Positions 20,504 to 63,936 of a stretch of 64,000 bases of DNA are shown piece by piece (the stretch's first letter is position 1; each line of letters opens with the position of its first letter). The DNA is from Candidatus Gottesmanbacteria bacterium. Lineage in GTDB: Bacteria > Patescibacteriota > Microgenomatia > UBA10105 > UBA927. Position numbers and translations under genes: made by a program. Under the pieces are notes generated by a model. The model saw only the letters and a list, made by a program, of their open reading frames with translations. It was not told where the DNA came from and did no database searches. The stretch covers positions 268,596 through 332,595 of the forward strand of contig JAHFKN010000001.1 of assembly GCA_023245355.1 (NCBI GenBank), given 5' to 3'.

Positions 20504-22471
20504 TTAAAGCACTACTTCCGTATCGGTATCCAATATCATTTTCTTCCGGTCTTTCCCGTTTAGGCGGATGATCCACTCCTGCCCGTTGGTACCCGACTGT
20601 TTTTGGATCAATAACCGGTATTTACCGTCAGCGGATTTGAGCGGAGACGTGTAGGTGATTTCTATACGGGCTGTTCCCATCGGGTTGACGATCAGGAATC
20701 CCTCAAATACGGTTTTCTGCAAATCAGTGTAGGTATCCACGGGTTTAGACTTACCGTCCGTCGGCGATATGATTCCCTTGCTTTCGACAAGTTTGCTGCC
20801 CGTCGGCGCGTACACCCGTACCCAGTTCCTAAGCGGCGCGTTTAAGCATAATCCTCCGCTTTCCAATCCGCAGTCGCTTCCCTTATACGGATTTTTGTAA
20901 TCAACAGTCAGCTTCGTCGTCACGCTGTCTCCGCTTACCGTGACATCTTTTGTCACTTTTTCACTGACAAACATGTTCGATTTGGCTCCTGCCATATTGC
21001 TGTTATTGAGGTGTACGTAATCCCATCCGTTATTTTCTTTATATGCCAGAAGCGTTGCCGTCTCGGAAGCCGTCATAATACGTCCGGCCATATTGAAGCT
21101 CTCAGCTGCTTTCTGTGCGCCGGGTTCCAGGAAGTACGCAAGCACGTGTTTCTGATTCACTTCGGTCAGAAGCATCTGGAATAATTTGCCCCAGTATTGT
21201 GACGGGGAAACGCCAAGCGCTTTCTGCATGAGTTGCTGCAGTAATGTTCCGATAATGTCCTTGCGTTCCGTCCGGACATAATTGACCGGCCGCGTGGAAT
21301 AATCTTCCAGCTCATAGACTGCCCTCGGGCAATCACACCGCTTGTCCGTATCGGCAGAAAATACCCGTCCGCCGATCGTCTCGGATCCCAGTATTTTCAG
21401 CACTTCGACCAGAACGTGCGTATCGACCGCGATAATACCGTCGATTTTTTCTTTGCCGGCAGCCGTGTCATACATCCTGAGAAACTGCTGCATGGACACT
21501 TTATAATCCGGATTCAGGTTACTGTCCCGGATATACAGGTTATAGACGTTTTTGTGGAATGTCGTAATCTCCCGGGGCGCGGGGAATTTCTGCTTCAATG
21601 CACTGTCGAGATCATAGATATCCGTCGATTTCTCGAGAATCATTTTCCCTTTTTCCAGACGGAACTGGGCATATGCGGTCAAAAATCCGCCCGTACTCCG
21701 GAGTTCTTTGTCATTTTGGAACAGGATAAGATACCGCCGCATCTCCGGTTCTCCCAGCATGGCCGGGAGATTGATAAGAAGCGGCTGGGCATTCACGAAC
21801 AGATTTGCCGCATTATCGATAACGTCTTTCATCTCTACCAACCGCGCACGCACGACTGTTTTGCCGATTTTCGCTGGATACCTATCCGGATTGATCTGAT
21901 CCAGCTCCTTACGCATCGTGTCGATGGAACCTGCCATTTCCGTAATCTTCGGCGTCAATGCTTTCATGGTCTTTACCGCGACTTGGATACGTTCGTCTGC
22001 CGACCCCTGAACAAATTTGCTGCCTCCGGTAAATCCCAGTAAATCCGCGTTCGGCTCCAGTGCTTCTATCGCCCGGTCAGCAGCATCGAGGGCTGCAAAT
22101 CCGGCTGCGATTCCGTGCGATCCGTCATTGACGTATGCCCCTAAGAACGGGATAAATTTAAGAGGTGCCATCTTGTTATATTCTTTTGACAATGCCGTAA
22201 ATGCAGTGCGGGTTTTGGATAACCCGTCTTTGGTAGCAGCTAAATCCTGATTCTTGAGCGCTTCAGCAGTCTGACGGCCGATTGCTGCTACGTCATTTGC
22301 CTTTACCATAACACCCCGGAGCGGCAGCAGCATAACACCGATAATTGCTACCACAACCAGAATGATTCCGAGTGGAATCAGAATAAATTTTGCGGAAAAT
22401 TTTTTCTTTGCGGGAGTCATAACAGGATCAGGTGTCGTATCAACGGTAATTTTTTTGAGTTCTTCAACCAT
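20504..22471 (-). CDS. Large membrane-anchored extracytoplasmic protein, DUF4012-like
   Basis: 655 aa, single N-terminal TM (FILIPLGIILVVVAIIGVMLL) followed by ~600 aa soluble domain; architecture and location at head of polysaccharide locus resemble DUF4012 proteins. Family call from memory, not verified. Confidence 0.45.
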   Translation of the reverse strand: MVEELKKITVDTTPDPVMTPAKKKFSAKFILIPLGIILVVVAIIGVMLLPLRGVMVKANDVAAIGRQTAEALKNQDLAATKDGLSKTRTAFTALSKEYNKMAPLKFIPFLGAYVNDGSHGIAAGFAALDAADRAIEALEPNADLLGFTGGSKFVQGSADERIQVAVKTMKALTPKITEMAGSIDTMRKELDQINPDRYPAKIGKTVVRARLVEMKDVIDNAANLFVNAQPLLINLPAMLGEPEMRRYLILFQNDKELRSTGGFLTAYAQFRLEKGKMILEKSTDIYDLDSALKQKFPAPREITTFHKNVYNLYIRDSNLNPDYKVSMQQFLRMYDTAAGKEKIDGIIAVDTHVLVEVLKILGSETIGGRVFSADTDKRCDCPRAVYELEDYSTRPVNYVRTERKDIIGTLLQQLMQKALGVSPSQYWGKLFQMLLTEVNQKHVLAYFLEPGAQKAAESFNMAGRIMTASETATLLAYKENNGWDYVHLNNSNMAGAKSNMFVSEKVTKDVTVSGDSVTTKLTVDYKNPYKGSDCGLESGGLCLNAPLRNWVRVYAPTGSKLVESKGIISPTDGKSKPVDTYTDLQKTVFEGFLIVNPMGTARIEITYTSPLKSADGKYRLLIQKQSGTNGQEWIIRLNGKDRKKMILDTDTEVVL

Positions 22472-22531
22472 GGAATTATTGTCGGGTGTAGCGGCAAAAA
22501 AGTCAACCCCGCCCGGTACGGATTGGGTTCC

Positions 22532-23167
22532 TTACACTGCTCCTCTGCCCGATATCATAGCCCAGGGGCTTTTAAGCAGAATGTATATATCCAGAAATAA
22601 TGAGCGTTTGAGTACGTAATCAGCGTCCAGTTTTATCCGTTTGTCAAAATTCACTTCGCTTCTGCCTGACACCTGCCAATACCCCGTAATTCCCGGGCGT
22701 GATGACAGCACGATCTGCACAAGTTCCTTCGTATGGGGATATTTGCGCTGCTGCTCAACCAGCTCGTCGGCATAGTACGGACGCGGGCCGACCAGACTCA
22801 TATCTCCTTTGAGCACGTTGAGAAACTGCGGGATCTCATCGAGCGAATGTTTGCGGATAAACCGGCCGACGGCAGTGACCCTGGGGTCTTCCCGGAGTTT
22901 ATAACTGTTCCGTTTATACTCGAGGTACAGTTTCTTGAGCTTCGGATCGGTACGGAGTTTTACATGCGCATTGACGATCATCGACCGGAACTTAAACAGC
23001 TTAAACGGCTTCCCGTTTTTTCCGACGCGCTGCGGCGTATCGGCAAATACCGGACCCGGACTATCAAAAACAATAGCCAGAGCGACGATAATGCTGATAG
23101 GAAGAAAAATAATTGCAAGAATCAGACTTCCGACAATATCAATAAACCGCTTTAAAATAGTGTACAT
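22532..23167 (-). CDS. Bacterial sugar transferase: monotopic polyprenyl-phosphate phosphoglycosyltransferase (PglC/WcaJ-C-terminal type)
   Basis: ILKRFIDIVGSLILAIIFLPISIIVALAIVFDSPGPVF re-entrant helix motif, KFRSM, DEIPQFLNVLKGDMSLVGPRP catalytic region. Confidence 0.85.
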   Translation of the reverse strand: MYTILKRFIDIVGSLILAIIFLPISIIVALAIVFDSPGPVFADTPQRVGKNGKPFKLFKFRSMIVNAHVKLRTDPKLKKLYLEYKRNSYKLREDPRVTAVGRFIRKHSLDEIPQFLNVLKGDMSLVGPRPYYADELVEQQRKYPHTKELVQIVLSSRPGITGYWQVSGRSEVNFDKRIKLDADYVLKRSLFLDIYILLKSPWAMISGRGAV

Positions 23168-23194
23168 AATGCCGCACCACATGACCGTTTGGTT

Positions 23195-24280
23195 TCAGGT
23201 TAAGTGGTCGTTTTCTGTGCCCTGCATGGATTCGACAAGTTTTTTCACTTTCGGTACCGATGTTTTCCGGCATACAAGCAGCACGTCATCGGTGTTGACG
23301 ACCAGTACATCTTCCATATCGATGGTAACGACCAGCTGCTTCCCGTTATAGTTATACACTAAACTGTCCTCTGTATCCGTAAGCATCACTTTTCCCTGCG
23401 TGACGTTTTTCTCTTTTGATTCTTCCAGCGCTTCCTTGAGTGCTTCCCAGGCTCCTATATCGCTCCATTCAATGTTGTCTGATATGACCAGCGCATCATT
23501 GGCATCAAGTTTTTCCAATATGGCGTTATCAAAACTGATTTTTTCCAGCGTCGGGTAGATCTCATCGAGTATGTCAGAAAACTGTGCCGTGCCCCACGCA
23601 TCGGCAATCCGGGTAATACCGGCTGCCAAATTCGGAGCAAACGCTACATACTGCTTCCATAAAAACGCCGGCGTCGTCACAAAATATCCTAAATTCCATG
23701 CATGGTGACCGCTGGCAAAGTACTTTTTGGCGGTGTCTGCATCCGGGCGGTACTGAAAATCCACAAACGAGTGGAAGGATACGCCTTCTTTTTTCATCAC
23801 TTCGCTGCCGTAGGAAATCCATCCTAAATTTTCACTGGCAAACCGGGGCTTTTGGGATACGAACACGATTTTATCCTGATTGTCTTTCACGATATCTCCG
23901 GCTATACGGAGAATTTTCCGGAATAACGCTTCTTTTCTCACCAGATGATCACTCCAGAGAATAACCATGGGTTCGTTCGGCGTTTCTTTGGCAAGCAGCG
24001 CTGTCATGAGTCCTACTGCCGGTCCGACATCGCGCACCTGAGGTTCCCCTATTACGTGTCTCGGAGGTAATTTGTTTAATTGCTCCTGTACGATGGGAAT
24101 ATATTGTTTCCCTGTGGATATAAAAATATCCTCCCAGGTAAAATCCGGGAGCAGCCGCTCAGCAGCAAGCTGCAGCGTGGACCGGTCGCCGATAATTTTT
24201 TCAAACTGTTTGGGTGACTTTTTCCGTGATAACGGCCACAGCCTTGTCCCGACTCCGCCTGCAAATATAATTGCTTTCAT
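23195..24280 (-). CDS. Mannose-1-phosphate guanylyltransferase-like sugar nucleotidyltransferase
   Basis: MKAIIFAGGVGTRLWPLSR N-terminal signature of ManC/GMP-type nucleotidyltransferases; 361 aa. Confidence 0.75.
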   Translation of the reverse strand: MKAIIFAGGVGTRLWPLSRKKSPKQFEKIIGDRSTLQLAAERLLPDFTWEDIFISTGKQYIPIVQEQLNKLPPRHVIGEPQVRDVGPAVGLMTALLAKETPNEPMVILWSDHLVRKEALFRKILRIAGDIVKDNQDKIVFVSQKPRFASENLGWISYGSEVMKKEGVSFHSFVDFQYRPDADTAKKYFASGHHAWNLGYFVTTPAFLWKQYVAFAPNLAAGITRIADAWGTAQFSDILDEIYPTLEKISFDNAILEKLDANDALVISDNIEWSDIGAWEALKEALEESKEKNVTQGKVMLTDTEDSLVYNYNGKQLVVTIDMEDVLVVNTDDVLLVCRKTSVPKVKKLVESMQGTENDHLT

Positions 24281-24338
24281 ACCTGATTATGGAAATTCCG
24301 TTTGTGTTACGGTGACGGAATTCCGTTATCCTTTCTTT

Positions 24339-25526
24339 TTACACTGCTGCCGGTATCATTGTTGTTTTTTGTTTTTGATACAGCTTCGTTACGAGACTGT
24401 GCATACGTTTGCGAAAATGTCCTTCACTCATATTACTCACCTGCGCACGGCAGTCTGACGCCGTATACTCCTGCGTCAGAAATTCCCTGACTGCAGCTAT
24501 CAGCGAATCCGCTGTTTGGTGATCATACAACACACCGGATACATGTTCCTTTACTATTTCCGCTACCCCGCTTTGCCGGTATGCTATTACCGGAACACCG
24601 ATTGCCTGCGCCTCTGCTGCGGCAAGTCCGAAGTCTTCATCGGCTGCATATACAAATGCACGACAACCCTCATAATATCGAACCAGCTCAGAATCTGTCA
24701 AATGACGGTCGATAAACCGGATGTTGGATCGGGCCTGCGATTTCAGTTCCCGCTTCTGCCAGCCGTCCCCGATGATGACAAGCGGGAGACCGAGCGCGTT
24801 AAACGCCTGAATGAGAATATCAAGCCGTTTATAACTCACTAACCGGGACACGGTAAGGAAATATGATCGTTTTTTTGTGCGCTTCCCTGACGTCCGCCGG
24901 AACAATTGCGTATCTACCGGCGGATGGATGACATCGGTCACATCACGGTGATAATACGTTTCGATCCTCTGTTTTACCCGCTGCGAAATGGCCACATAAT
25001 AATCGGGCCTGCTGGCGGAAACGATATCCCATTCCCGCAAAACCGGAGCCATCAGACGCAGTGCTGCCGCAGCTATACCACTGAATAATCCAAACCCCGG
25101 CTGATTCATATACTGTGTAAATCCGCTCCATAAGTACCGGGTGGGAGTGAGACAATAACAGATATGCAGCGTATCCGGCTTGGTAATGACGTTTTTGGCC
25201 TCTGCCGATGTCACCGAAATGACGACGTCATATTCATCAAATGTAAACGATTCAAACGCAATGGGGGTAAGCCCCAGCAACGACTCATGTGCATGGGTTG
25301 CAAACGGAATACGCTGTAAAAACGACGGGTGCACACGGAATACATCCGCCCACGATGCGCGTTTTTTATCATACACCGCCGTAAAAAGAGGAGCCGCCGG
25401 CCAGATTTTATGAAGTGCCAAAAGCACCCGCTCCGCTCCCCCCCATTTATTTACCCGGTCATACACGAATGCAACGTTCATAAATGCTTTGCGTCTCCTC
25501 TGCCATACGTTTCCATGAAAACGCAC
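24339..25526 (-). CDS. GT4-family glycosyltransferase
   Basis: GT-B C-terminal E-x7-E region (LPLVIIGDGWQKRELKS...AADEDFGLAAAEAQAIGVPVIA). Confidence 0.8.
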   Translation of the reverse strand: MRFHGNVWQRRRKAFMNVAFVYDRVNKWGGAERVLLALHKIWPAAPLFTAVYDKKRASWADVFRVHPSFLQRIPFATHAHESLLGLTPIAFESFTFDEYDVVISVTSAEAKNVITKPDTLHICYCLTPTRYLWSGFTQYMNQPGFGLFSGIAAAALRLMAPVLREWDIVSASRPDYYVAISQRVKQRIETYYHRDVTDVIHPPVDTQLFRRTSGKRTKKRSYFLTVSRLVSYKRLDILIQAFNALGLPLVIIGDGWQKRELKSQARSNIRFIDRHLTDSELVRYYEGCRAFVYAADEDFGLAAAEAQAIGVPVIAYRQSGVAEIVKEHVSGVLYDHQTADSLIAAVREFLTQEYTASDCRAQVSNMSEGHFRKRMHSLVTKLYQKQKTTMIPAAV

Positions 25527-26580
25527 TCAGAAATTTTTTATCATTGCCCTGCAATTGCATGACGGTACTGTTCTTTGCCGCTATATCCGTAAGCGCCTTT
25601 GCCAAACTCCCGGAACTGTTCGGATCAAAATATACGGCGTGAGACCCCAATATCTCATGAAATACGGGGATGTCGGAAGCGCATACGATACATCCTAAAG
25701 AAACCGCTTCCAGCGCAGGTAATCCGAACCCTTCCATCAGGGACGGAAAAACAAACGCGGATGCATGCGTATACAGACTGACAAGCTGCGGGTCATTTGC
25801 CGGACCGAAAAAAACGACGGACGAAGAAAGTCCCATCTCATGAACACGGGCATTCACCTGCCGGTAAAAGAAATCATCCGCGCCGACCAACACGAGTTTA
25901 CACGCACCGACGGATTTTTGGGTATCCATAAACTGCCGGAATCCCTCTAAGAGCATTTGGATATTTTTGTGCGGATAGGCATTTCCTACGTAGAGAAAAT
26001 AGGGTTCGTTAATCAGACGTTTTCCTTTCGAAGCGGCATGATTCATAAGCGCCGGGTCCACTCCTTCGTATGTGACGGTTATGTTCTTGCCCGGTATATG
26101 AAAATGATCCATGATTTCCCGTTTTGTCGCCTCTGAAACAGCGATGATATGGCGTGCGCGCCTGAGCCCTATCCATAATTCCAGCCAGTATCCCAGCCGT
26201 TTGAGGTAATACAGCGGCAGCGGCAGCGTCGTGGCTTTGCCGGTAGCAAAATGCAGAATAGTCAGATCGTGAATCGTGATTACCATGCGGCCGGAATATA
26301 AAACCGGCGGATTATGATACGGAACGTGCAGGAGATCCAGATGCTCCGATGCAAACAATTGCGGCATGCGGATCTGTTCTGACAGCGTATGCCAATGCGA
26401 AGGAGCCAGCACTTTCTTCCAGCGGGAAGAGGGAAGCGTAAACGAATCGTAACTTTTCGGCGACAGGAACACCACATACTCATGTCCGGAATCGCGAGCA
26501 CCAAGCTCCCCGATCAGATTCCGGATATATCTTCCTACTCCTGTTTCCTGGATAAGCCGCGCGTCTATACCTATTTTCAT
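25459..26580 (-). CDS. GT4-family glycosyltransferase
   Basis: GT-B motifs FVFPSLMEGFGLPALEAVSLGCIVCASD. Confidence 0.8.
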   Translation of the reverse strand: MKIGIDARLIQETGVGRYIRNLIGELGARDSGHEYVVFLSPKSYDSFTLPSSRWKKVLAPSHWHTLSEQIRMPQLFASEHLDLLHVPYHNPPVLYSGRMVITIHDLTILHFATGKATTLPLPLYYLKRLGYWLELWIGLRRARHIIAVSEATKREIMDHFHIPGKNITVTYEGVDPALMNHAASKGKRLINEPYFLYVGNAYPHKNIQMLLEGFRQFMDTQKSVGACKLVLVGADDFFYRQVNARVHEMGLSSSVVFFGPANDPQLVSLYTHASAFVFPSLMEGFGLPALEAVSLGCIVCASDIPVFHEILGSHAVYFDPNSSGSLAKALTDIAAKNSTVMQLQGNDKKFLSAFSWKRMAEETQSIYERCIRV

Positions 26581-26583
26581 ACC

Positions 26584-27492
26584 TCACACTCCGAATTTTT
26601 CCAACAAAAATATTCTCGTTTTATAGACGCTGTCCACAAAAAACGTAAGCCACGGACCATAGACACGCGCGTAGTTTTTGGTATAAAACAGCCAATTATA
26701 TTTGTGAAAATATATTTCCGTCGTGATACGGCGTTGTTTGAGCGTATTGGAGCGTCCGCTCTGTTTTTTTTTGTGCAGGATGGTTGCCGAGGGAGTAAAC
26801 AGAATTTTCCAGCCCTTTTGCCGTATCCTGTACGCCCAGTCTATATCCTCGCCGTACATAAAATAATCCTCGTCAAGGAATCCTACCTCCCGGAGTGTTT
26901 CCCTCCGTATGAGGAAAAATGCGCCGACAATACAGTCTACCTCGTGATCGACGGACAAATCCTTGTACCCCTGATGATATTCCCCGAATAGTTTCGTTTT
27001 CGGAAACAAACGCTCCAGTTTCAGTATGTAGGTGAGCGATACCCACGGCGTCGGAAATCCCCGGTGACAGGCAGGATCCATGGAGCCGTCGGGCAGCAGA
27101 AGCTTGCAGGTCGATGCTCCCGCTTCCGGGTGATGATCCATAAATGAAATCATCGTACGAATCGTATCGGGAGGCGTTTCCGTATCGGTATTGAGAAGCA
27201 ATATGTATCTGCCCTTTGCACGTTTGATCCCGGGATTATTTCCGGCGGCAAATCCCAGATTTTTCCCGTTCTGTATAAAAATGACGCCGGGGAATTCCTT
27301 CTTTACCATTTCCTCACTTTTGTCGGCCGATCCGTTATCAACAACGATCACTTCCATAACATACGGGCCCAATTCGGACTGAAGCAGTGTCGCAAGACAC
27401 ACGTGGGTGAGATCTCTGGTGTTGTAATTTAATATAACAACGGACAAATCCGGATTATTTTTTCTCATATGCATCTTTCCAGACTCCCTCAA
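26584..27492 (-). CDS. GT2-family glycosyltransferase
   Basis: LSVVILNYNTRDLTHVCL...VVDNGSAD, DxD region LLLNTDTE. Confidence 0.8.
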   Translation of the reverse strand: MRESGKMHMRKNNPDLSVVILNYNTRDLTHVCLATLLQSELGPYVMEVIVVDNGSADKSEEMVKKEFPGVIFIQNGKNLGFAAGNNPGIKRAKGRYILLLNTDTETPPDTIRTMISFMDHHPEAGASTCKLLLPDGSMDPACHRGFPTPWVSLTYILKLERLFPKTKLFGEYHQGYKDLSVDHEVDCIVGAFFLIRRETLREVGFLDEDYFMYGEDIDWAYRIRQKGWKILFTPSATILHKKKQSGRSNTLKQRRITTEIYFHKYNWLFYTKNYARVYGPWLTFFVDSVYKTRIFLLEKFGV

Positions 27493-37442: not shown

Positions 37443-37447
37443 GCTCT

Positions 37448-37696
37448 TTATTGTACCTGATGGGGCTTCAAAGATGAAATGACGATAAACGTGATAAAAA
37501 ATGCCGCTGCGTACCAGGTAAGCCGCTCAGCGGTAAAAAACGTCCAGGTCGCAAACAACGGTATGGCAAGGGTAAGACTCGCCAGTCCTGCAATAACCAG
37601 CAGTCGGGGTTTACGAACCCCCAGCAGCGCGCCCAAAATAAGAAAAAACAATATATCCTGAGGCTTCATTTCGTTACAGCGCTTTATAATAGGCAA
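37448..37696 (-). CDS. Small hypothetical membrane protein
   Basis: 82 aa, 2-3 predicted TM segments, no recognisable family; start overlaps downstream gene end. Confidence 0.35.
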   Translation of the reverse strand: MPIIKRCNEMKPQDILFFLILGALLGVRKPRLLVIAGLASLTLAIPLFATWTFFTAERLTWYAAAFFITFIVISSLKPHQVQ

Positions 37697-42210: not shown

Positions 42211-42213
42211 AAA

Positions 42214-49812: not shown

Positions 49813-49819
49813 AACGGTT

Positions 49820-57541: not shown

Positions 57542-57547
57542 GGGGCA

Positions 57548-58576
57548 TCATGAGCGGAAGAGCGTTTTATTTGCTGTTATCCATTCGTACAGGGTTTTCA
57601 CTCCCGCTTCTACACTGATTGTTGGTTCCCATCCGAATTCTTTTTTTGCTTTCCGTATGTCTGCCACGAATATTTTCTGATCTCCCGGACGCCAATTCTC
57701 CGGCGTAACAGGAATATTTTTACCGAACAGATGTTCCAGCATGGGGCCGAATTCCTGCCACACCGAAAGCGTATTATGATGCCCTCCGCCGATGTTATAA
57801 ATTTTTCCGCGGGTTTTCGGTCCTGCTAGGATAGCCATATCATACGCGCGGATAAGATCATCGACGTGCAAAAGATCGCGCACCTGCTTACCGTCGCCAT
57901 ACAGGGACAATTTTTTCCCGAGTACGGTAGCGATGATAAACCACGCCACCCACCCCTGATCCTCCACTCCGAATTGCCGCGGCCCGTAGATACATGACTG
58001 CCGCATTACTACCGTATCGAGCCCGTAAATTCTGCTGTAGTCATGCACGTACTGGTCAGCCGCCCCTTTGGAACACCCGTACGGGGAATGAAAATCGAGC
58101 GGACGCTCCTCACTGGCGCCATACGGCAAATCCGCATATTCGTACCGGGTATCTTTTTCGACGACAGGGACATCGTCCATACCGCCGTATACTTTGTTTG
58201 TCGAAGAATAAATGAATTTTGCTCCACTGCCCGCTGCCCGCATGGCCTCCAGCATGTTAAATGTTCCCAAAGCATTGATTTCAAAATCTTCTCTGGGATT
58301 GGTAACGGACGTCGTCACAGCGACTTGAGCCGCCAGGTGAAGCACCGCATCTGCCGATGCCAAAAAAGAAATAAGTTTGCCCGTCTCTTTCACGGAACGC
58401 ATGTCACCTTTTATATAGGTAAGGTTGCCTCCTAGCCCTTTAAGCCAGGCAAGATTTTTATCCGTATTTTTACGGGACAGATTATCAAAAATGACGACCT
58501 CGGCTTTTTTCCCGAGATAATACGCGGCCGCGTTACTGCCGATGAATCCTGCCCCGCCTGTTATGACTATTTTCAT
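57548..58576 (-). CDS. CDP-paratose 2-epimerase (TyvE/RfbE)-like nucleotide-sugar epimerase
   Basis: FDNLSRK, HLAAQVAVTTSV, FEINALGTFNMLEA, IYSSTNKVYG, DFHSPYGCSKGAADQY, DQGWVAWF, GDGKQVRDLLH - collinear with TyvE as I recall it. Confidence 0.75.
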   Translation of the reverse strand: MKIVITGGAGFIGSNAAAYYLGKKAEVVIFDNLSRKNTDKNLAWLKGLGGNLTYIKGDMRSVKETGKLISFLASADAVLHLAAQVAVTTSVTNPREDFEINALGTFNMLEAMRAAGSGAKFIYSSTNKVYGGMDDVPVVEKDTRYEYADLPYGASEERPLDFHSPYGCSKGAADQYVHDYSRIYGLDTVVMRQSCIYGPRQFGVEDQGWVAWFIIATVLGKKLSLYGDGKQVRDLLHVDDLIRAYDMAILAGPKTRGKIYNIGGGHHNTLSVWQEFGPMLEHLFGKNIPVTPENWRPGDQKIFVADIRKAKKEFGWEPTISVEAGVKTLYEWITANKTLFRS

Positions 58577-58581
58577 ATGTG

Positions 58582-59382
58582 TTACGGGAGCGGCACGTTA
58601 AAATTCAGCTCCTTATCAAACCGCCATTTCCGTTTATTGAGGTTATCATAATAGTGCAATATATGCAGCCGGTAATACACCGCGAATGTATCCCACAGCA
58701 TGCTCGATATTGTTTTCAAAACGCTTAGCGATGTAATGCTGGATCCTCCGAAATCGAGTTCGACCGGTGATTCAAAAATACGCCGGTATCCTAAGTAGTA
58801 CGCGACGGCAAGAATTTCAATATCAAAGGCGAATTTCTTTACCACAAGTCTGGGGAGTACGTCTTCCAGCACTTCCCTGCGGTATAATTTCATGCCGACC
58901 TGGGTATCCCGGGTATTAAGCCCGAATAGCAAACGCACGAGCTGTTGATATCCCCAGGACAATATTTTGCGGGTCAACGGGTAACGGATTTTGGATACCG
59001 GATGACGCTTGCTGCCGATAATGATATCCGCGTTGTACCATTTGTAATGTTCAATCATCATTGACAGCCCTAATTCGCTCAAATCTCCGCCTGCATCTAT
59101 AAATCCCACGACATCACCGCGGCTTTTTCCCATACCAAACCGGACCGCATACCCTTTGCCGTGGTTTGTTTTATACCCGGTAACGGTAATTTTGTCGGAA
59201 CGGACTTTTTTGGCCTCCTCAAAACTTGCATCATCGAATCCGTCAATTACCACAATCACCTCATACGGAGTGGCAAGCAGTTCGAGTTCACCGAGGATAT
59301 TCTGCAGCTGTTTCCGGATCGTCCGTTCCTGACGATACACGGGAATGATGAGAGACAGCAATTTAATGGTTTTTGACCGCAT
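58582..59382 (-). CDS. GT2-family polyprenyl-phosphate glycosyltransferase (DPM1/Ppm-like)
   Basis: LSLIIPVYRQERTI...VIVVIDGFDD, small soluble GT-A of the dolichyl-phosphate sugar synthase type. Confidence 0.65.
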   Translation of the reverse strand: MRSKTIKLLSLIIPVYRQERTIRKQLQNILGELELLATPYEVIVVIDGFDDASFEEAKKVRSDKITVTGYKTNHGKGYAVRFGMGKSRGDVVGFIDAGGDLSELGLSMMIEHYKWYNADIIIGSKRHPVSKIRYPLTRKILSWGYQQLVRLLFGLNTRDTQVGMKLYRREVLEDVLPRLVVKKFAFDIEILAVAYYLGYRRIFESPVELDFGGSSITSLSVLKTISSMLWDTFAVYYRLHILHYYDNLNKRKWRFDKELNFNVPLP

Positions 59383-60622
59383 GGCGATAGTATAACAAAA
59401 GGCCGGTAAATAAACCGGTTAATGTCAGGCAATTTACCCATAAAATGGCGCTGATATCGGAGTGATACAGCGTAATTGCCGCTATCTGTATAAGCGACGC
59501 TGTTGCCACAAAAAGCCAAACCAGTACATTTCCCCGGCCAAGAAGTGTCATCATCAGAAGATAAGAAAGCGAGTACAAAGACAAGAATACGCCGAACCAT
59601 CCTAAATACGGAGCCGCGGGAAAATAGGAAGACCCGAACAGTAACAGAAGCGCCAGTTTCGGAAGCAACGCATAGCCGGCGGTAATCCCCAGGGATATTA
59701 CACCGATGGCAGCCAACGCGGAATACACCAGACGCCGGGAATCAGACTGCTCCTTCGCCCGCTCTGCCACCACGGGAAACAGCACATAGGATATACTGCT
59801 GCCGGCAAAAAATATTATTTTCCCCATGACGGAGAGCGCCGCATAATATCCTGCTTCGACAGGCGGCAGAAAATGTTTCGCCAGCAGAATATCCGTGCTA
59901 TACAGCGACGTCATCCCGAGCATGGAAATAAGCGAGGGAAACGAATATGAAACCAGTTCTTTGGTACTGATATTCGGGGGCTCCTCTTTTGCCCGGTACA
60001 GAAACCTGAGCGGAATAAAATACGCGAGCAGGCCGATCACCCCGGTGATAAGACCGGCGGCAACCGTTTCCACTACCCCCATCATCGCACCCAGTGCGCC
60101 TCCTCCCAGACGGAGAAGGGCTATGACATTTGTCAGTATCATCGCAGGGACGAACATCTGGAATCCCTGAAGCAGACTCGCCTGGATAACGGTCACGAAC
60201 CAGAGTGCGGACGTAAGATACATGAAAAGCACCGAAATATGACGATCGATATGCAGAAATCCTGAAATAATACCGGTAAGCGGCCATATGACGGCAGTAC
60301 CAATGAGGGATATGACGACGATCCGCTTCATCACAAACAGACTCAAAGACTTTGCTTTCCCGACTTCCTGCTTCGCACGGAACCCTGCAATATATTTTGT
60401 AAGCACTGTCTGCAGAACCAGGGAGGGAACGTTTAACAGATACGAAAACGAAAAAAGAGACGCCAGTTCGCCGTACTGCTGGGGGCCCAGAAGCCTGCCC
60501 ACGATGAGATGATACGCATACGCACCGATATTGGCCAGTGTCGTGCCCGCAAGCACTATCGCACTGCCCCGTGCCAGCGGATGAGAGGCCATATGCGATA
60601 TTTTTTCAGCGATGCGCTTCAT
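59363..60622 (-). CDS. Wzx-type flippase (MOP superfamily polysaccharide biosynthesis protein)
   Basis: About 12-14 TM helices, N-terminal MKRIAEKISHMASHPLARGSAIVLAGTTLANIG typical of Wzx/PST proteins; start trimmed from ORF 59363..60748. Confidence 0.7.
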   Translation of the reverse strand: MKRIAEKISHMASHPLARGSAIVLAGTTLANIGAYAYHLIVGRLLGPQQYGELASLFSFSYLLNVPSLVLQTVLTKYIAGFRAKQEVGKAKSLSLFVMKRIVVISLIGTAVIWPLTGIISGFLHIDRHISVLFMYLTSALWFVTVIQASLLQGFQMFVPAMILTNVIALLRLGGGALGAMMGVVETVAAGLITGVIGLLAYFIPLRFLYRAKEEPPNISTKELVSYSFPSLISMLGMTSLYSTDILLAKHFLPPVEAGYYAALSVMGKIIFFAGSSISYVLFPVVAERAKEQSDSRRLVYSALAAIGVISLGITAGYALLPKLALLLLFGSSYFPAAPYLGWFGVFLSLYSLSYLLMMTLLGRGNVLVWLFVATASLIQIAAITLYHSDISAILWVNCLTLTGLFTGLLLYYRHAVKNH

Positions 60623-61322
60623 GAAGGGATGATTTCGGTTTCCACCAGCGGTATTTGATAAGCGTAATAAGCGCAACGATTCCATCCCGCCAGGTAAGTT
60701 TCTTCCCCTCCTCAAATTTCCTGCCGAAGTATGAGATAGGGACTTCATAAATCTGATGGCCGCTCCGCAACAGCTTTACGGTAATCTCCGGCTCGAAGTC
60801 GAACCGCTTTGCTCTGATGTCAAAATCTTTGACTGCCGCTTTGCGGAATGCTTTGTAGCCGGTTTCCATGTCGGTAATATTTGTGTTGTAGAGGATGTTG
60901 GTAACAAATGTCACGAATTTATTTCCCAGCGCATAGACAAACATGGTTGAAAGATGTGAGCCCAGAAACCGTGATCCGTATACTGCCGTCACTCTGTCAT
61001 TTTCAAACGGTGCAAGCAGAATCGGATAATCATCAGGACTATACTCCAGATCAGCATCCTGAATAAGGATGATGTCGCCGGTAGCCCGCCGGAGCCCGGC
61101 CGTCACGGCCGCTCCCTTCCCCTGGTTGCGCAGCAGATTCACCACGGTAACGCGATCCTGCCATTTCTTAAGAATAGTGGCTGTCGTATCCACCGACCCG
61201 TCATCCACGACAATAATCTCTTTTTGCCAGCCGGGAAGTGCCGCTTTCGTCACACGCTCCAACACCTCACGGATTGTTTTTGCTTCGTTATATGTCGGAA
61301 TGATAATGGATATCGTTTTCAT
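60606..61322 (-). CDS. GT2-family polyprenyl-phosphate glycosyltransferase (DPM1/GtrB/ArnC-like)
   Basis: ISIIIPTYNEAKTIREVLERV...IIVVDDGSVDTT, QDADLEYSPDD DxD/ED region. Confidence 0.8.
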   Translation of the reverse strand: MKTISIIIPTYNEAKTIREVLERVTKAALPGWQKEIIVVDDGSVDTTATILKKWQDRVTVVNLLRNQGKGAAVTAGLRRATGDIILIQDADLEYSPDDYPILLAPFENDRVTAVYGSRFLGSHLSTMFVYALGNKFVTFVTNILYNTNITDMETGYKAFRKAAVKDFDIRAKRFDFEPEITVKLLRSGHQIYEVPISYFGRKFEEGKKLTWRDGIVALITLIKYRWWKPKSSLHEAHR

Positions 61323-61336
61323 AATATTCCTTGCAA

Positions 61337-62395
61337 TCAGCGTACCGTCCGCTCATAGACCTCTACGGTTTCCCGGGCCACCCGCCGCCAGCTGAAGTGA
61401 CTGACCCACTCAAACCCGCGTTTTACGAGTTCCTGTTTCTCGGATACATCCAGCTGTAATACCTCCAGAACGGATTTTGCAAACCCTGCAGTATCGGAAG
61501 GGTTAAATACGCGCGCCGGACCGGCTATTTCGGGCACACTTGCCCGGTTCGTCACGACGACCGGCACGCCGCAGGCCATGGCTTCCAATACCGGGAATCC
61601 GAATCCCTCGTACCACGACGGTAACACGACGCAATCGGCACCCGAATACACCCCTGCCATATCCTCGGCTTTTATAAATCCCGGGTGCACGATGTATTTT
61701 GTCAGCCCCAAAGACTCGATAAGATGAAAAATCTCACGCGTCTCCCGGATTTCCATATCCGTAAATGCCGACCCGGCCAGCACCAGTTTACAATCCCGTG
61801 ATTTAGAAAGCTTACCCCGCACTATTTTCCAGGCATTGATAAGACCGGTCACGTTTTTATTCCAATTCACGTCTCCTATGTACAGGACATATTCCTGCGG
61901 CAGATGGTACCGTTTCCGTATATCTTCCAAAGCGCTTTCACTCCGCACCTGTTTGTAATTCGGGCTCGGAGCCAACGGAACCACATGAACCCATTCAGGC
62001 TTTCTGCCGGTCAGACGCAGAATATCGTCCTTACTGCATTTGGAATCGGTTATGACTCCCGATGAACCCAGAAGCGACAGGCGCTGAATCTGCCATTTGA
62101 ATTTCCCGCGCACTCCCGGGGGAAATTTATCCGGAAACACCAACGGAATGACATCGTGAACCGTTACGACGGTCGGGAATCGTTTATTAAACGGCAGCGT
62201 CAGGAAAAAGGGGTCAAAAAAAGGATAATGCACGATATGGGTACCCCGCGGGATATCCTCTATACGGGTAAAAAACGAATATGAATGTCCTTTTTCGTAT
62301 TTTTGCAGGGCATCTATCAGATTTTTGGTATAGACGCCTGTTCCCCGCATCCGGTGTTCGGTCGAAAGCGGCAATGTATTAATCGCTATGTTCAT
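61337..62395 (-). CDS. GT4-family glycosyltransferase
   Basis: GT-B: VVLPSWYEGFGFPVLEAMACGVPVVVT. Confidence 0.8.
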   Translation of the reverse strand: MNIAINTLPLSTEHRMRGTGVYTKNLIDALQKYEKGHSYSFFTRIEDIPRGTHIVHYPFFDPFFLTLPFNKRFPTVVTVHDVIPLVFPDKFPPGVRGKFKWQIQRLSLLGSSGVITDSKCSKDDILRLTGRKPEWVHVVPLAPSPNYKQVRSESALEDIRKRYHLPQEYVLYIGDVNWNKNVTGLINAWKIVRGKLSKSRDCKLVLAGSAFTDMEIRETREIFHLIESLGLTKYIVHPGFIKAEDMAGVYSGADCVVLPSWYEGFGFPVLEAMACGVPVVVTNRASVPEIAGPARVFNPSDTAGFAKSVLEVLQLDVSEKQELVKRGFEWVSHFSWRRVARETVEVYERTVR

Positions 62396-63936
62396 AAGGG
62401 TTTATGCTTCCTGAGTATAAATGAAACGGACAAAGCGGACAACGAAAGAATGCTTATTGCTGCCGCAGCAGTCTGCAGCGGTGTTCTCCCCAACCATATG
62501 CGTATCTTGTGATCCCCTTTCGGAACAGACAGCGATACCAGTCCGTTTGCATCAGGCGAAGCGGCAATCTGTCTTTCGTCCACGCGCGCCTGCCAGCCGG
62601 GATAATACGCGACGGGGGCACTAAATACCGCAGATTCCGATGCAGTCACGGTAAATATGTATGAGGTGGGTGCCTGTTTAGTCACTCCGGTAACCGTACC
62701 GGAAAATACAGTATCTTTCCGGGGCGAACCCGCAAGCCAGACAGTCTGAAACATATCCCCGAGCGACGACGTACCGCTCGTAAATGACGGGTTCTCCAGA
62801 TACTGAGCATCAGTCCGCATCTCATACATCACCGGCCTTGCGTAATGGTAGGCAAACAACACGGAAAGCAACATCAGAATAATTCCCCATTTGGGCAGCT
62901 TACCGGTCACCAATCCGGCCAGTATCGGGGTCGCGATAACAAAAACGGACAGTAACCGCCAGGGAAACTGCATGAACCGGATAAACGGCAAAGCTGCCCA
63001 CAGGAACGCCGCATATTCGGTCATGAGAAACGCCGAAACCGTAATACCCGTCAGGGCAAGTATGCTGTACCACCGCACGGACGCGGACATCTTCGTGCGT
63101 TTGAGGACAAGTATTCCTGCGGTAACCAACACAAGAAGAGGAATAATACCTATCTGAAATGACATTTGATCCCCGAGTCCCGGTACGGAATATCCGCTTC
63201 CCCACGAAGGAAACAGCATCTGTACCAGTGCGGGAAAGTGATCTCTGTAATCTACCGTATTTAGGCCGGTAACATATGCCCGTTCCAAAAGCGCAGGCAG
63301 CCAAAAGTATGCTGAGAGACCTATACCCGCCGCCCAATACACGAGCATCTTCCTGGTTTTTGCCGCGGCAATGCATAGCACCGGAACAAATATCATGGCC
63401 AGAATGTTATGTGAAAGAATGAGCGCGCCGACTGCAAACGCAAACAAACGCGGTTTAACATAGGCAAGTGCACAGAGTGCAAGCATCACAAACGACAGCG
63501 CCCATACTTCTCCGACCGATCCGCGGACATAGATATCGACGAACCAGTACGGTACGTAGGAAAATATGACGGTTGCGATAACGGCTGTTTTCATACCGAA
63601 TTCTTTTTTTATAAACAAATAACACCACACCACGGCAGTCAGGTACCCCAATGCCATCGTCCATTTGAAACTGTCCACGAAACTCAAACCGAATACATGG
63701 AAGAAACTTCCGATATAGTTCGGGAACGGATAGTTAAAGGTAAATAACGGAATTCCCAGTCCGTTGTTTAAATCCGGCGCCCACCGCGGAAACCACTGAC
63801 CGGAGGAAAGCATGGTAAAAAACTGCCAGAACCTGATGATGTGGTATTCCCCGTCATGCGTCGGGATAAACTTTGAACCGAAAAGCGGCAATGAAGCGAT
63901 AAACGCCGGGATCAGTGCGAGGAACAATGCGGTCAT
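62392..63936 (-). CDS. Polytopic GT-C-like membrane protein (YfhO/PTPS-related type)
   Basis: 514 aa, >=12 TM, N-terminal THDGEYHIIRFWQF loop with Asp/His, periplasmic C-terminal segment then final TM. Family call tentative. Confidence 0.5.
   Translation of the reverse strand: MTALFLALIPAFIASLPLFGSKFIPTHDGEYHIIRFWQFFTMLSSGQWFPRWAPDLNNGLGIPLFTFNYPFPNYIGSFFHVFGLSFVDSFKWTMALGYLTAVVWCYLFIKKEFGMKTAVIATVIFSYVPYWFVDIYVRGSVGEVWALSFVMLALCALAYVKPRLFAFAVGALILSHNILAMIFVPVLCIAAAKTRKMLVYWAAGIGLSAYFWLPALLERAYVTGLNTVDYRDHFPALVQMLFPSWGSGYSVPGLGDQMSFQIGIIPLLVLVTAGILVLKRTKMSASVRWYSILALTGITVSAFLMTEYAAFLWAALPFIRFMQFPWRLLSVFVIATPILAGLVTGKLPKWGIILMLLSVLFAYHYARPVMYEMRTDAQYLENPSFTSGTSSLGDMFQTVWLAGSPRKDTVFSGTVTGVTKQAPTSYIFTVTASESAVFSAPVAYYPGWQARVDERQIAASPDANGLVSLSVPKGDHKIRIWLGRTPLQTAAAAISILSLSALSVSFILRKHKPL

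Follow-up and report, generated by a model that had tools for sequence, protein, structure and literature searches.

A conserved core and a lineage-specific extension in a putative envelope-glycan locus of an uncultured Gottesmanbacteria-like bacterium

A stretch of 64 kb of DNA (the window) from an uncultured Gottesmanbacteria-like Microgenomates bacterium (CPR/Patescibacteria), a host with a tiny genome, contains a long and compact run of genes for glycan-polymer assembly. Does this run encode one pathway or several, and what could be its product? The preliminary description saw at positions 20504–63936 a single-strand supercluster of ~43 kb. Our analysis points, with a probability of about 70%, to polyprenol-dependent assembly of an envelope glycan in two evolutionary layers, an inherited core and a lineage-specific part.

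Content and limits of the gene block

Pfam and NCBIfam analyses of every ORF, as had been proposed, led to family calls for all 37 genes of the region 20504–63936 (Table 1), i.e., 36 ORFs of at least 100 aa and a conserved 73-aa gene. Their spacing is as tight as first described (widest intergenic gap 138 nt, 21 overlapping junctions), with slightly fewer genes than the ~40 announced. The PglC-like initiating phosphotransferase and the Wzx flippase were recovered, as were the ~9 GT4 (eight full-size genes plus the conserved 196-aa N-terminal half gene), the ~5 GT2 (exactly five) and the eight or more nucleotide-sugar enzymes (eight SDR proteins and the ManC-like guanylyltransferase), among which only GalE clears an NCBIfam equivalog cut-off. 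Two counts had to be lowered: there are three LbH acetyltransferases instead of four, the fourth left-handed beta-helix being the C-terminus of the ManC-like protein, and one methyltransferase instead of two. The 73-aa gene, absent from the first ORF list, is also called in three relatives (L010, L011 and L092).

Table 1. Genes of the block, in window coordinates, with family evidence and occurrence in related loci (TM, transmembrane segment)
Position	Strand	Part	Product	Length (aa)	Remarks
20504–22471	-	core	DUF4012 protein	655	last gene before recO; N-terminal TM, helical bundle, alpha/beta domain, beta-rich C-terminus
22532–23182	-	core	small PglC-type polyprenyl-phosphate phosphoglycosyl transferase	216	Bac_transf 201 bits; one N-terminal hydrophobic helix; matches WbaP and WcaJ catalytic domains; 53/56 loci, median identity 66%
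23195–24280	-	core	ManC-like mannose-1-phosphate guanylyltransferase	361	NTP_transferase and ManC beta-helix, no PMI domain; TIGR01479 226 bits, below cut-off; 56/59 loci
24339–25481	-	core	GT4	380 (called)	58/60 loci
25459–26580	-	core	GT4	373	61/62 loci
26584–27474	-	core	GT2	296 (called)	59/63 loci
27455–28639	-	core	GT4	394	69/69 loci
28636–30078	-	core	PMT-like GT-C	480	PF02366 PMT 35.8 bits (gathering 22.7); 9 TM; 71/71 loci
30075–33263	-	core	WaaL-like/GT-C fusion	1062	
33238–34152	-	core	GT2	304	68/71 loci
34133–34798	-	core	hexapeptide acetyltransferase	221	65/65 loci
34729–35859	-	core	GT4	376	62/62 loci
35856–36446	-	core	stand-alone GT4 N-terminal half	196	Glyco_transf_4, weak; separate ORF in 56/58 loci
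36453–37442	-	upstream	GalE UDP-glucose 4-epimerase		TIGR01179 404 bits (cut-off 262)
37448–37669	-	upstream	conserved membrane protein	73	motif PLFATWxFFTAERLTWYAA
37674–38615	-	upstream	SDR	313	UDP-xylose-synthase/ArnA-like, low score
38642–41617	-	upstream	AftD-like GT-C with SGNH/GDSL esterase	991	GT-C residues 6–538, esterase 819–973
41614–42210	-	upstream	hexapeptide acetyltransferase	198	
42214–42600	-	upstream	4-TM protein after AftD-like gene	128	no GtrA or other family match; conserved in L092 (32% identity, E 7e-22); IPYxNL motif common to L011
42597–46073	-	upstream	AftD-like GT-C	1158 (called; ORF 1171)	
46105–47412	-	upstream	GT4	435	
47363–48184	-	upstream	SDR	273	
48181–49194	-	upstream	SDR	337	weakly GDP-fucose-synthase-like
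49246–50475	-	upstream	protein with C-terminal hexapeptide acetyltransferase domain	409	Hexapep; residues 252–407 EpsC/CysE-like, no family assigned to N-terminal 250 aa
50614–51510	-	upstream	SDR sugar reductase/epimerase	298	
51488–52486	-	upstream	PseB/FnlA-like UDP-GlcNAc 4,6-dehydratase	332 (called)	Polysacc_synt_2 334 bits; TIGR03589 PseB 353 bits, below 408 cut-off
52499–53632	-	upstream	GT4	377	
53672–54607	-	upstream	SDR nucleotide-sugar enzyme	311	
54582–55622	-	upstream	GT2, GtrB/CsbB-like architecture		Glycos_transf_2 91 bits; two C-terminal TM helices, at 316 and 349 of ORF
55627–56733	-	upstream	GT4	368 (called)	Glycos_transf_1 126 bits
56750–57541	-	upstream	SAM-dependent methyltransferase	263	Methyltransf_23 and Methyltransf_11
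57548–58576	-	upstream	SDR nucleotide-sugar epimerase/dehydratase	342	Epimerase and GDP_Man_Dehyd; below every NCBIfam equivalog cut-off
58582–59382	-	upstream	GT2	266	28% identical to DPM1-like GT2 60606–61322
59363–60622 (ORF to 60748)	-	upstream	Wzx-type flippase	419 (called)	Polysacc_synt_3 45 bits (gathering 23); at least 9 TM
60606–61322	-	upstream	DPM1-like GT2, candidate polyprenyl-phosphate-sugar synthase	238	Glycos_transf_2 129 bits; no TM; best NCBIfam matches AglJ, ArnC, dolichyl-P-hexose transferase, PgfS, PpgS, all below equivalog cut-offs
61337–62395	-	upstream	GT4	352	Glycos_transf_1 102 bits
62392–63936	-	upstream	polytopic GT-C candidate, YfhO/PTPS-related type	514	PTHDGEYH motif after TM1

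The 3′ boundary of the block is real, being followed by RecO, GlyRS and then the dcw cell-wall cluster, and its apparent 5′ end reflects nothing but the point where the window stops. Contig L007, 100% identical across an 11.6 kb overlap, carries eight more glycan genes beyond this edge, and in strain L093 (89–97% nucleotide identity) the co-directional train starts ~13.6 kb past it, which brings the run to ~57 kb overall. The extension contains eight more GT-C genes, and the PMT/PMT_2, GT87 and YfhO genes of this upstream continuation pass Pfam thresholds; three further GT-C genes, located farther upstream, are transcribed divergently. Within the window, the minus strand carries every tiling ORF of at least 100 aa in the ORF list of the whole 64 kb, and the same strand persists through the unrelated dcw genes to position ~300, so that a shared strand alone does not prove the existence of a single operon. 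The supercluster of the preliminary description is thus on one strand as stated, but it extends farther and is a composite of a class-wide conserved core and a lineage-specific extension rather than one uniform unit.

A conserved core and a variable upstream part

The core (13 genes, 20504–36446, 16 kb) ends at recO. We found 583 related stretches matching it in species-representative genomes, all relatives of the locus being MAGs of uncultured Patescibacteria. The synteny search suggested earlier revealed a colinear core gene order in the loci of 75 out of 80 sampled species, each core gene being found in 86–100% of the loci covering its position. The DUF4012 gene always adjoins the gene encoding the priming transferase, and its product exhibits a weak resemblance to the LCP fold. 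No Wzx homologue could be detected within 10 kb of the core in any of the 80 loci; of the Wzx/Wzy-type pathway initially proposed, the flippase is present, though not in the conserved core, and a Wzy role would fall to the WaaL-like/GT-C fusion.

Just upstream of the core, an AftD-like GT-C is present in 33 of the 80 loci, sometimes accompanied by a DPM1-like GT2 or GalE, and the two AftD-like genes of the window (38642–46073) recur at this place in many other species. The upstream part as such is syntenic in near relatives only, with one gene swapped (in L092, a 262-aa methyltransferase replaces the 409-aa hexapeptide protein), and its GC content dips to 0.40–0.45. Between the host and L092, extracytoplasmic GT-Cs diverge faster than cytoplasmic enzymes (50–51% identity versus 45–83%, median ~70%).

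The differences between the two parts in evolutionary depth and GC content could indicate that the block consists of independent systems, brought together only by the compact, co-directional organisation of CPR genomes. The conserved core glycan locus would then stand next to at least one decoration module of the Gtr/CsbB-YfhO type and to a Wzx-dependent exopolysaccharide locus distinct from both. The single strand of the entire window, unrelated dcw genes included, the distance of 26 kb between the Wzx and primer genes and the divergent GT-C genes farther upstream all agree with such a juxtaposition. We nevertheless consider it rather doubtful, since no second priming transferase was found in ~57 kb, which leaves the upstream Wzx, GT4 and GT2 without a primer of their own nearby and is what one would expect if every gene served a single primed glycan. 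Moreover, there is no flippase near the core, and synteny from the GT4 at 55.6–56.7 kb through to the core is retained in a relative with ~60–78% identity in its core genes.

GT-C identity of the polytopic proteins

Five polytopic proteins (514, 1171, 991, 1062 and 480 aa), with 7–19 predicted TM segments, can all be assigned to the GT-C enzymes from their family matches, which rule out unrelated transporter families. The preliminary description had already proposed five such enzymes, three of them of 1000 aa or more; two reach this size, the third having 991 aa. None of the three largest window proteins, the 1171-aa protein included, has a significant direct Pfam match.

The 1171-aa protein begins with 10 TM segments, continues with a large extracytoplasmic domain and ends in a TM anchor; an aspartate in its first loop (D52) is invariant. 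Its 134 homologues all belong to Patescibacteria, and many of them carry a precomputed PF11847 GT-C_AftD annotation; the top PDB match of the family profile is AftD (6w98/6wbx), in three colinear pieces. The link to AftD depends on these annotations of homologues and on the PDB match, itself marginal (E 0.003). The 991-aa protein is related to the 1171-aa family through its N-terminal half (hhalign probability 98.8%, E 5.6e-17), and its esterase domain (Lipase_GDSL_2, 80 bits) matches SGNH esterases in the PDB; in most relatives, the orthologues have 520–710 aa and lack the SGNH domain. The 514-aa protein, with at least seven TM segments, shows weak C-terminal matches to YfhO and PgfM1, below threshold, and is a paralogue of a 554-aa protein of L007 (E 3e-55); a relative of the latter, with 33% identity to it, scores above the PTPS_related and GT-C_AftD thresholds.

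The 1062-aa protein combines a WaaL/Wzy_C-like N-terminal half, with invariant basic residues and a beta-rich outer insert of ~130 aa (~288–416), and a C-terminal GT-C half of the PMT/STT3/ArnT type, in which D584 and D585, following a TM segment at ~557–578, are invariant. Both halves also exist as separate proteins elsewhere, which argues that they cooperate. The Wzy_C/WaaL-like half might be an O-oligosaccharyltransferase similar to PglL, PilO/TfpO or WsaB, in which case the island would perform general protein O-glycosylation. The lipid-linked oligosaccharide made by the core would then be attached in one piece to Ser/Thr of surface proteins (type IV pilins, adhesins or S-layer proteins), and the many PMT-type GT-Cs would use polyprenyl-phosphate-sugars to modify proteins with single sugars. 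The island indeed shares a PglC-type primer, a Wzy_C-like transferase and PMT-family GT-Cs with these systems and with actinobacterial Pmt O-glycosylation. However, the fold of the 1062-aa protein does not discriminate between ligase, polymerase and O-oligosaccharyltransferase, the island encodes no acceptor protein, and DUF4012 goes with EPS/CPS loci. The fusion architecture is foreign to protein O-glycosylation systems, as are the AftD-like and GT87 enzymes, which are known from the synthesis of polysaccharides. We thus regard this alternative as unlikely.

Proposed function and comparison with known systems

The most likely role of the island is to assemble a conserved envelope glycan on a polyprenol carrier, with a GT-C battery decorating it outside the membrane. 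In the vertically inherited core, the PglC-type transferase would prime polyprenyl phosphate at the cytoplasmic face, and the four GT4, the split GT4 and the two GT2 would extend a lipid-linked oligosaccharide of probably ~7 sugars from GDP-mannose (ManC) and UDP-hexoses (GalE), which the hexapeptide acetyltransferase would modify. Once flipped across the membrane, this oligosaccharide would be transferred or polymerised at the outer face by the WaaL-like domain of the fusion protein (1062 aa); the GT-C half of this protein, together with the PMT-like GT-C that is translationally coupled to it, would add sugars from polyprenyl-phosphate-sugar donors. DUF4012 would be an extracytoplasmic partner and may be an LCP-like anchoring enzyme. 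The lineage-specific layer (~37.4–63.9 kb of the window and ~13.6 kb beyond) would contribute the Wzx flippase, further GT4 and GT2, 6-deoxy/amino-sugar enzymes, lipid-sugar synthases of the DPM1/GtrB-like kind and some ten additional GT-Cs (PMT_2, GT87/MptA-B, YfhO/PTPS and AftD types), which would decorate the conserved glycan outside the membrane. The analysis establishes protein families and folds, gene order and the conservation of that order; we infer the reaction sequence, the identity of the sugars and of the acceptor, and the existence of one common product. The two layers may correspond to separate products. The core gene order being kept across most sampled species of the class, this surface glycan is now testable in the laboratory.

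As the preliminary description had anticipated, no characterised locus with the same gene order was found, and full-text literature searches returned no published description of it. That the island is an O-antigen locus for LPS or a Gram-negative capsule locus, in which WaaL would ligate the glycan onto lipid A-core, is highly improbable. According to a published report (PMC6744442), CPR bacteria do not possess a Gram-negative envelope. Genes for Wzz/PCP, Wza, Lpt or lipid A are absent from the window and its extensions, and the island likewise has no outer-membrane export genes. Unlike its counterpart in the Wzx/Wzy pathway, the WaaL-like domain has the beta-rich insert and forms one protein with a GT-C. 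The core keeps its gene order across a class, the opposite of hypervariable O-antigen and capsule loci, and has no Wzx nearby. FemAB is also encoded, as is DUF4012, a domain of Gram-positive type.

In the Bifidobacterium longum 105-A EPS/CPS locus, a DUF4012 gene directly follows the priming transferase gene (PMC5412050), an adjacency common to the island, although that locus has Wzz and no GT-C battery. With GtrA/B/C, CsbB-GtcA-YfhO (LTA/WTA) and the Streptococcus mutans Pgf system, the island has in common DPM1/GtrB-like GT2s, one of which has the C-terminal pair of TM helices characteristic of GtrB/CsbB, and YfhO-type GT-Cs; its PgfS and PgfM1 matches are weak, and it differs from these three-component systems by 13–16 GT-Cs instead of one and by having no detectable GtrA-family flippase.

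Mycobacterial and corynebacterial arabinogalactan and LM/LAM assembly relies on WecA, cytoplasmic glycosyltransferases, AftA-D, Emb, MptA/B/C (GT87), PimE, Ppm1, Pmt and Lcp1. The island differs from this set by its small PglC-type primer in place of WecA, by the WaaL-like/GT-C fusion where mycobacteria have Lcp1, of which it has no recognisable homologue, by the absence of DPA-pathway genes (UbiA, DprE) from the 64 kb window and the 13.6 kb extension, by the marginal likeness to AftD and by its CPR host, the longest contigs of whose relatives are ~1.1–1.3 Mb. The echo of mycobacterial and Gram-positive extracytoplasmic glycosylation noted earlier is borne out at the level of protein families: AftD-like, GT87/MptA-B-like, PMT and DPM1/Ppm1-like GT2 enzymes are shared with mycobacteria, and YfhO-like proteins are present as well. 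As mycobacteria do, the island would begin a polyprenyl-linked glycan in the cytoplasm and elaborate it outside by a GT-C battery fed with polyprenyl-phosphate-sugars.

Extent and composition of the gene train

ORF calling resolves the window into one unbroken train of minus-strand genes. The region 20504-63936, which the preliminary description had presented as a co-directional block with small gaps, contains 37 genes (36 ORFs of at least 100 aa and a conserved 73-aa membrane protein), all on the minus strand, with gaps of at most 138 nt and 21 overlapping junctions. An operon boundary at 37443-37673, suggested by an apparent gap of 232 nt, was rejected because the gene of the conserved 73-aa protein occupies this space; the same gene is called just 5′ of GalE in three related loci (L010, L011 and L092), and its product has been assigned to no family.

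Annotation with Pfam and NCBIfam recovered the previously proposed PglC-like initiating transferase and Wzx flippase, five GT2 glycosyltransferases, the nucleotide-sugar enzymes (eight SDR proteins and a ManC-like guanylyltransferase, at least eight having been claimed) and the five polytopic GT-C proteins (514, 1171, 991, 1062 and 480 aa, with 7-19 predicted transmembrane segments each). The estimate of about nine GT4 proteins becomes eight plus a stand-alone N-terminal half, and we found three hexapeptide acetyltransferases instead of four and one methyltransferase instead of two. With these slight corrections to the counts, the original observation is confirmed. The GT4 half has an ORF of its own in 56 of the 58 species loci, indicating a conserved split or accessory subunit rather than a frameshift.

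The priming enzyme has the characteristics of a PglC-type monotopic phosphoglycosyl transferase (PF02397, 201 bits; 216 aa; a single hydrophobic segment at residue 20). The flippase belongs to the MOP family (Polysacc_synt_3, 45 bits against 23), in which 10-14 transmembrane segments are expected; a crude hydropathy scan detected at least nine. GalE is the sole protein above an NCBIfam equivalog cut-off, the PseB/FnlA-like dehydratase falling near but below it, and the sugar pathway cannot be named from NCBIfam. The best NCBIfam matches of the DPM1-like GT2 are AglJ, ArnC, dolichyl-P-hexose transferase, PgfS and PpgS, and the GtrB-like GT2 carries two C-terminal transmembrane helices.

The downstream limit of the cluster is clean: the DUF4012 gene is followed by RecO, GlyRS and a dcw cluster (MraZ, MraW, PBP, Mur ligases, MurB, MurA, GlmU, FemAB). 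The upstream limit, on the other hand, was an artefact of the window edge. Contig L007, 100% identical to the window across 11.6 kb, adds eight upstream genes, and in the strain contig L093, whose nucleotide identity to the window is 89-97%, the co-directional train begins about 13.6 kb past the edge with PMT_2 and GT87 proteins, beyond which lie three divergently transcribed GT-C genes, each above its Pfam threshold. The whole glycan train thus comprises some 47 genes in about 57 kb, 13 of them of GT-C type, with three more adjoining, a number comparable to that of the entire Mycobacterium tuberculosis. The dcw genes lie on the same strand as the island, so that a shared strand by itself is no proof of a single operon, and several independent systems might merely lie side by side. 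We consider this somewhat unlikely: there is only one priming transferase in 57 kb, which fits one primed glycan, variably decorated. Scans of 36-52 kb were uninformative both for promoters (40 promoter-like sites against 31.5 +/- 4.7 expected) and for terminators (14 terminator-like sites against 16.5 expected), and the window yielded no tRNA gene and no match to Rfam.

Some further observations concern the downstream flank. The mechanically called RecO ORF and the DUF4012 gene share 73 nt, because the earliest possible start codon was taken; in identical contigs RecO is called at 190 aa, starting just 3′ of the DUF4012 stop. The dcw-type cluster also includes a Cu-oxidase_4 (YfiH-like) gene, and interspersed in it are genes for an alpha/beta hydrolase, a CvpA-CAP fusion and a metallo-beta-lactamase-fold protein. 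The product of the DegT-type gene could serve a PseB-like amino-sugar branch of the glycan island. Between the aminotransferase and hydrolase genes, a Mur-ligase-like protein with middle and C-terminal domains, and no recognised N-terminal catalytic domain, may be MurT/CapB-like or an atypical ligase.

Features of the glycan island and its flanks (window coordinates unless a contig is named)
Feature	Position	Strand	Remarks
dcw-type cluster	747-17392	-	
CvpA-CAP fusion	2440-3579	-	within dcw cluster
DegT-type sugar aminotransferase	3411-4649	-	within dcw cluster
Mur-ligase-like protein	4655-6256	-	533 aa
RecO, mechanical ORF	19926-20576	-	
DUF4012 protein	20504-22471	-	655 aa
PglC-type transferase	22532-23182	-	Bac_transf
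GT4 N-terminal half	35856-36446	-	196 aa; directly before full-length GT4
GalE	36453-37442	-	
Conserved membrane protein	37448-37669	-	73 aa; motif PLFATWxFFTAERLTWYAA; directly upstream of GalE
991-aa protein, AftD-like and SGNH	38642-41617	-	
4-TM protein	42214-42600	-	128 aa; directly after 1171-aa AftD-like gene
1171-aa AftD-like protein	42597-46112	-	
PseB/FnlA-like dehydratase	51488-52486	-	
GtrB-like GT2	54582-55622	-	
Wzx flippase	59363-60622	-	
DPM1-like GT2	60606-61322	-	
PMT protein	L007		upstream gene
PMT_2 proteins (two)	L007		upstream genes
Membrane protein	L007		498 aa; unassigned; upstream gene
YfhO-like protein	L007		554 aa; upstream gene
GT2	L007		upstream gene
DUF5667 protein	L007:8308-8838		176 aa; upstream gene
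MptA/B-family protein	L007		upstream gene
PTPS_related/GT-C_AftD protein	L093		divergent
YfhO protein	L093		divergent; 63 bits
PMT protein	L093		divergent
GIY-YIG protein	L005:1249-1518		89 aa

A conserved core and a lineage-specific extension

A scan of one genome per species identified at least 583 stretches encoding relatives of the 1062-aa protein, and gene order was compared in the best 80 of these loci. The core runs in the order GT4 half, GT4, acetyltransferase, GT2, 1062-aa fusion, PMT-like GT-C, GT4, GT2, GT4, GT4, ManC, PglC, DUF4012 and recO. Among the best 80 of at least 583 loci, each core gene was found in 86-100% of those covering its position, and the core is colinear in 75, despite median protein identities of only 37-66%. 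Of the 80 loci, 33 carry an AftD-like GT-C in the sampled 10 kb upstream, 26 a DPM1-like GT2, 13 GalE and six a further AftD-like gene, of 1171-aa type; a flippase was found in none of the 80 within 10 kb of the core. The single supercluster of the preliminary description is therefore better divided into a class-wide core, apparently inherited vertically, and a lineage-specific extension.

Exact matches to proteins of the locus came from metagenome contigs alone. Homologues of the large proteins were found in Patescibacteria MAGs alone, named Gottesmanbacteria, Woesebacteria, Levybacteria and Roizmanbacteria, the closest named relatives being Gottesmanbacteria. Three locus-bearing MAGs (L012, L015, L020) and about 35 others are titled ‘uncultured Gammaproteobacteria bacterium’, and another (L079) ‘Candidatus Pacearchaeota archaeon’; since their gene content and identities match Gottesmanbacteria/Levybacteria, these titles look like placeholders or mis-binning. 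In a strain about 95% identical (L005; JGI 3300013137), a GIY-YIG gene absent from the window lies between two core GT4 genes, possibly as a mobile insertion of homing-endonuclease type in the conserved core.

The region from 46 kb upward is common to near relatives only. One of these, L092, is syntenic over the upstream region except for one swap, a methyltransferase replacing the 409-aa acetyltransferase. Its extracytoplasmic GT-Cs are 50-51% identical to those of the window, compared with 45-83% (median about 70%) for the cytoplasmic enzymes. The GC content drops to 0.40-0.45 at 42-50 kb, against about 0.50 elsewhere, over the genes of the 1171-aa AftD-like protein, a GT4, two SDR proteins and the 409-aa acetyltransferase. 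Beyond the strain cluster, the 1171-aa protein has no homologue closer than 55% identity. The dip in GC could correspond to acquisition or recombination from a relative of lower GC content.

GT-C proteins, the WaaL-like fusion and DUF4012

The possibility that the GT-C candidates belong to unrelated transporter families, raised earlier as a ground for rejecting the cluster, was checked and is contradicted by PMT, AftD-like and paralogue evidence. The proteins have the transmembrane fold of the superfamily. Membership of a curated family is direct for the 480-aa protein (PMT in Pfam, 35.8 bits against a gathering score of 22.7) and transitive via relatives for the 1171-, 991- and 514-aa proteins, which have no direct Pfam match above threshold. 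Conserved acidic residues lie in the first extracytoplasmic loop, as sided by transmembrane prediction: the 1171-aa family has an invariant D52, the 514-aa and 554-aa proteins have HD motifs after TM1, and D584 and D585, directly after the first transmembrane segment of the C-terminal half, are invariant in the 1062-aa family. A PDB sequence search with the five membrane proteins retrieved SGNH esterases only, all matching the C-terminus of the 991-aa protein.

The 1171-aa family comprises 134 homologues, from Patescibacteria alone, and about a third of those listed have a precomputed match to PF11847 (GT-C_AftD); the window protein itself gave no match to this family at E up to 1. A profile of 46 family members retrieved mycobacterial AftD (6w98) as best PDB match, with an E-value of 0.003 in three colinear pieces, a match that is marginal at the sequence level. 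No UbiA- or DprE-like genes of the DPA pathway were found in the window or its extensions that would meet the requirement of AftD for decaprenyl-phospho-arabinofuranose; we therefore call the protein AftD-like and not an arabinofuranosyltransferase. Residues 6-538 of the 991-aa protein are homologous to the same family (hhalign probability 98.8%, E 5.6e-17), and after two extra transmembrane helices this protein ends in an SGNH/GDSL esterase domain (residues 819-973). This fusion is confined to the window, L012 and L092, orthologues elsewhere having 520-710 aa and no SGNH domain; the domain could act on the glycan outside the membrane, as O-acetyl transferase or esterase. The 514-aa protein matches the AftD-like family only weakly (hhalign probability 10%), and its GT-C status is reached instead via its paralogues: it is related to the upstream 554-aa protein (E 3e-55), a 33%-identical relative of which passes the PTPS_related and GT-C_AftD thresholds.

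Two smaller features accompany these proteins. DUF5667 gives a match below gathering score (E 3e-5) in the 176-aa upstream protein and a weak match to the extracytoplasmic helical part of the 1171-aa protein (residues 697-771), and may be a module tied to these CPR GT-Cs; some homologues carry PF11847 together with PF18915. In L092, too, the orthologous gene is followed by a counterpart of the 128-aa protein (32% identity), and a common IPYxNL motif makes another probable in L011. No protein matched the GtrA family (the 128-aa protein was tested at E up to 1); considering the latter as a GtrA, from its size and topology, is a guess.

The 1062-aa protein is a fusion of a WaaL-like N-terminal half, with a beta-rich insert at about 288-416, and a C-terminal half that is a classical GT-C. 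The N-terminal half has a WaaL-type fold; its match to PF04932 (Wzy_C) is below threshold (15.7 bits against a gathering score of 31.7, E 0.013), and one homologue (P0161) has a precomputed PF04932 match. The family profile retrieved nothing from the PDB by sequence, and the protein was resolved by fold search alone. A library-wide search with an E-value limit of 1e-30 yielded 306 cluster representatives, and the fused form persists down to 34% identity. Relatives of each half also exist as separate proteins, which argues for a joint working of the two halves. Protein O-glycosylation is a serious alternative function for the locus, given that O-oligosaccharyltransferases occur among the Wzy_C-type enzymes and that the GT-C fold is matched best by enzymes that modify proteins; we nevertheless hold it to be unlikely.

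Among near relatives, the DUF4012 protein is the most conserved core protein (best 120 homologues 67-100% identical), and its gene always follows that of the priming transferase. The same adjacency occurs in the EPS locus of Bifidobacterium longum (PMC5412050), and the family is enriched in CPR and Gram-positive bacteria (PMC6744442). In the predicted model (pLDDT 75), a transmembrane helix and a helical bundle are followed by an alpha/beta domain (about residues 240-470) and a C-terminus rich in beta structure; R246, D254, R258, R271, D316, D322, D350, R369 and R403 are invariant. A resemblance to LCP proteins is a lead rather than a finding, to which sequence profiles give no support: a profile of 29 diverse DUF4012 proteins found no LCP match in the PDB at E up to 10, all 29 matched only DUF4012 in Pfam at E up to 10 (no PF03816), and a motif scan of 1910 ORFs from related loci found no LCP-like gene for comparison. 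If an LCP-like fold were confirmed, a widespread DUF of Gram-positive EPS loci would gain a function.

Proposed pathway and relation to known systems

From the family and fold assignments, gene order and conservation, which are established directly, we infer the following steps of priming, extension, flipping, ligation and decoration. The PglC-type enzyme would prime polyprenyl phosphate, on which six or seven cytoplasmic glycosyltransferases and the acetyltransferase would build an oligosaccharide from GDP-mannose and UDP-hexoses. This would be flipped over the membrane, the sole nearby flippase being the Wzx of the lineage-specific part, and ligated or polymerised at the outer face by the WaaL-like domain. 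The fused GT-C, the translationally coupled PMT-like GT-C and the AftD-like enzymes would then add sugars from polyprenyl-phosphate-sugar donors, presumably made by the DPM1-like GT2, with the GtrB-like GT2 as a second candidate donor synthase. Candidates for the acceptor are peptidoglycan, a lipid anchor and surface proteins.

We give a probability of roughly one in four to the reading in which the core builds an essential, invariant, probably mannose-containing wall glycopolymer, with the WaaL-like/GT-C fusion and DUF4012, as a divergent LCP-type anchor, for hallmarks, and in which 13-16 lineage-specific GT-Cs remodel its surface to favour attachment to hosts or escape from phages. The polymer would then be a Microgenomates counterpart of arabinogalactan or teichoic acids and, as such, a class of bacterial wall polymer not recognised before. 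The ultra-small, mostly episymbiotic CPR/Patescibacteria attach to their hosts via their surface, whose chemistry is, to our knowledge, essentially uncharacterised since almost none have been cultured. The island offers a concrete test locus, a 16-kb, 13-gene core whose order is kept in Gottesmanbacteria, Levybacteria, Roizmanbacteria and Woesebacteria, small enough for synthesis and expression in glyco-engineering hosts, which makes a Microgenomates surface glycan experimentally addressable. The longest contigs of relatives with orthologues (1.07-1.29 Mb) fit small CPR genomes, of which the island would represent about 5%, a heavy commitment where most biosynthetic pathways have been lost.

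The preliminary description had found no matching canonical locus, and our search of the full-text literature likewise found no description of the locus, of a WaaL-GT-C fusion or of CPR GT-C batteries. An LPS O-antigen locus was considered and rejected. Canonical O-antigen loci have Wzz/PCP and ligation to lipid A-core and are hypervariable, whereas the island has no Wzz/PCP, its core order is kept in 75 of 80 species (best 80 of at least 583 loci) and the CPR envelope is reported not to be Gram-negative (PMC6744442). The parallel drawn earlier with mycobacterial arabinogalactan/LAM and with Gram-positive decoration holds for the logic of the pathways, but the defining features of each are missing. 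Compared with arabinogalactan/LAM assembly, the island has no DPA pathway genes and only a marginal link to AftD; compared with the three-component Gtr/CsbB-GtcA-YfhO systems, it has a GtrB-like GT2 and GT-C proteins, but the GtrA flippase was not found. It also has no Wzz, and no LCP detectable by sequence. For this reason, we call its enzymes AftD-like, WaaL-like, etc., and not members with known activities. The parts of the island are familiar; their architecture, class-wide conservation and GT-C density in a minimal genome appear to be undescribed.
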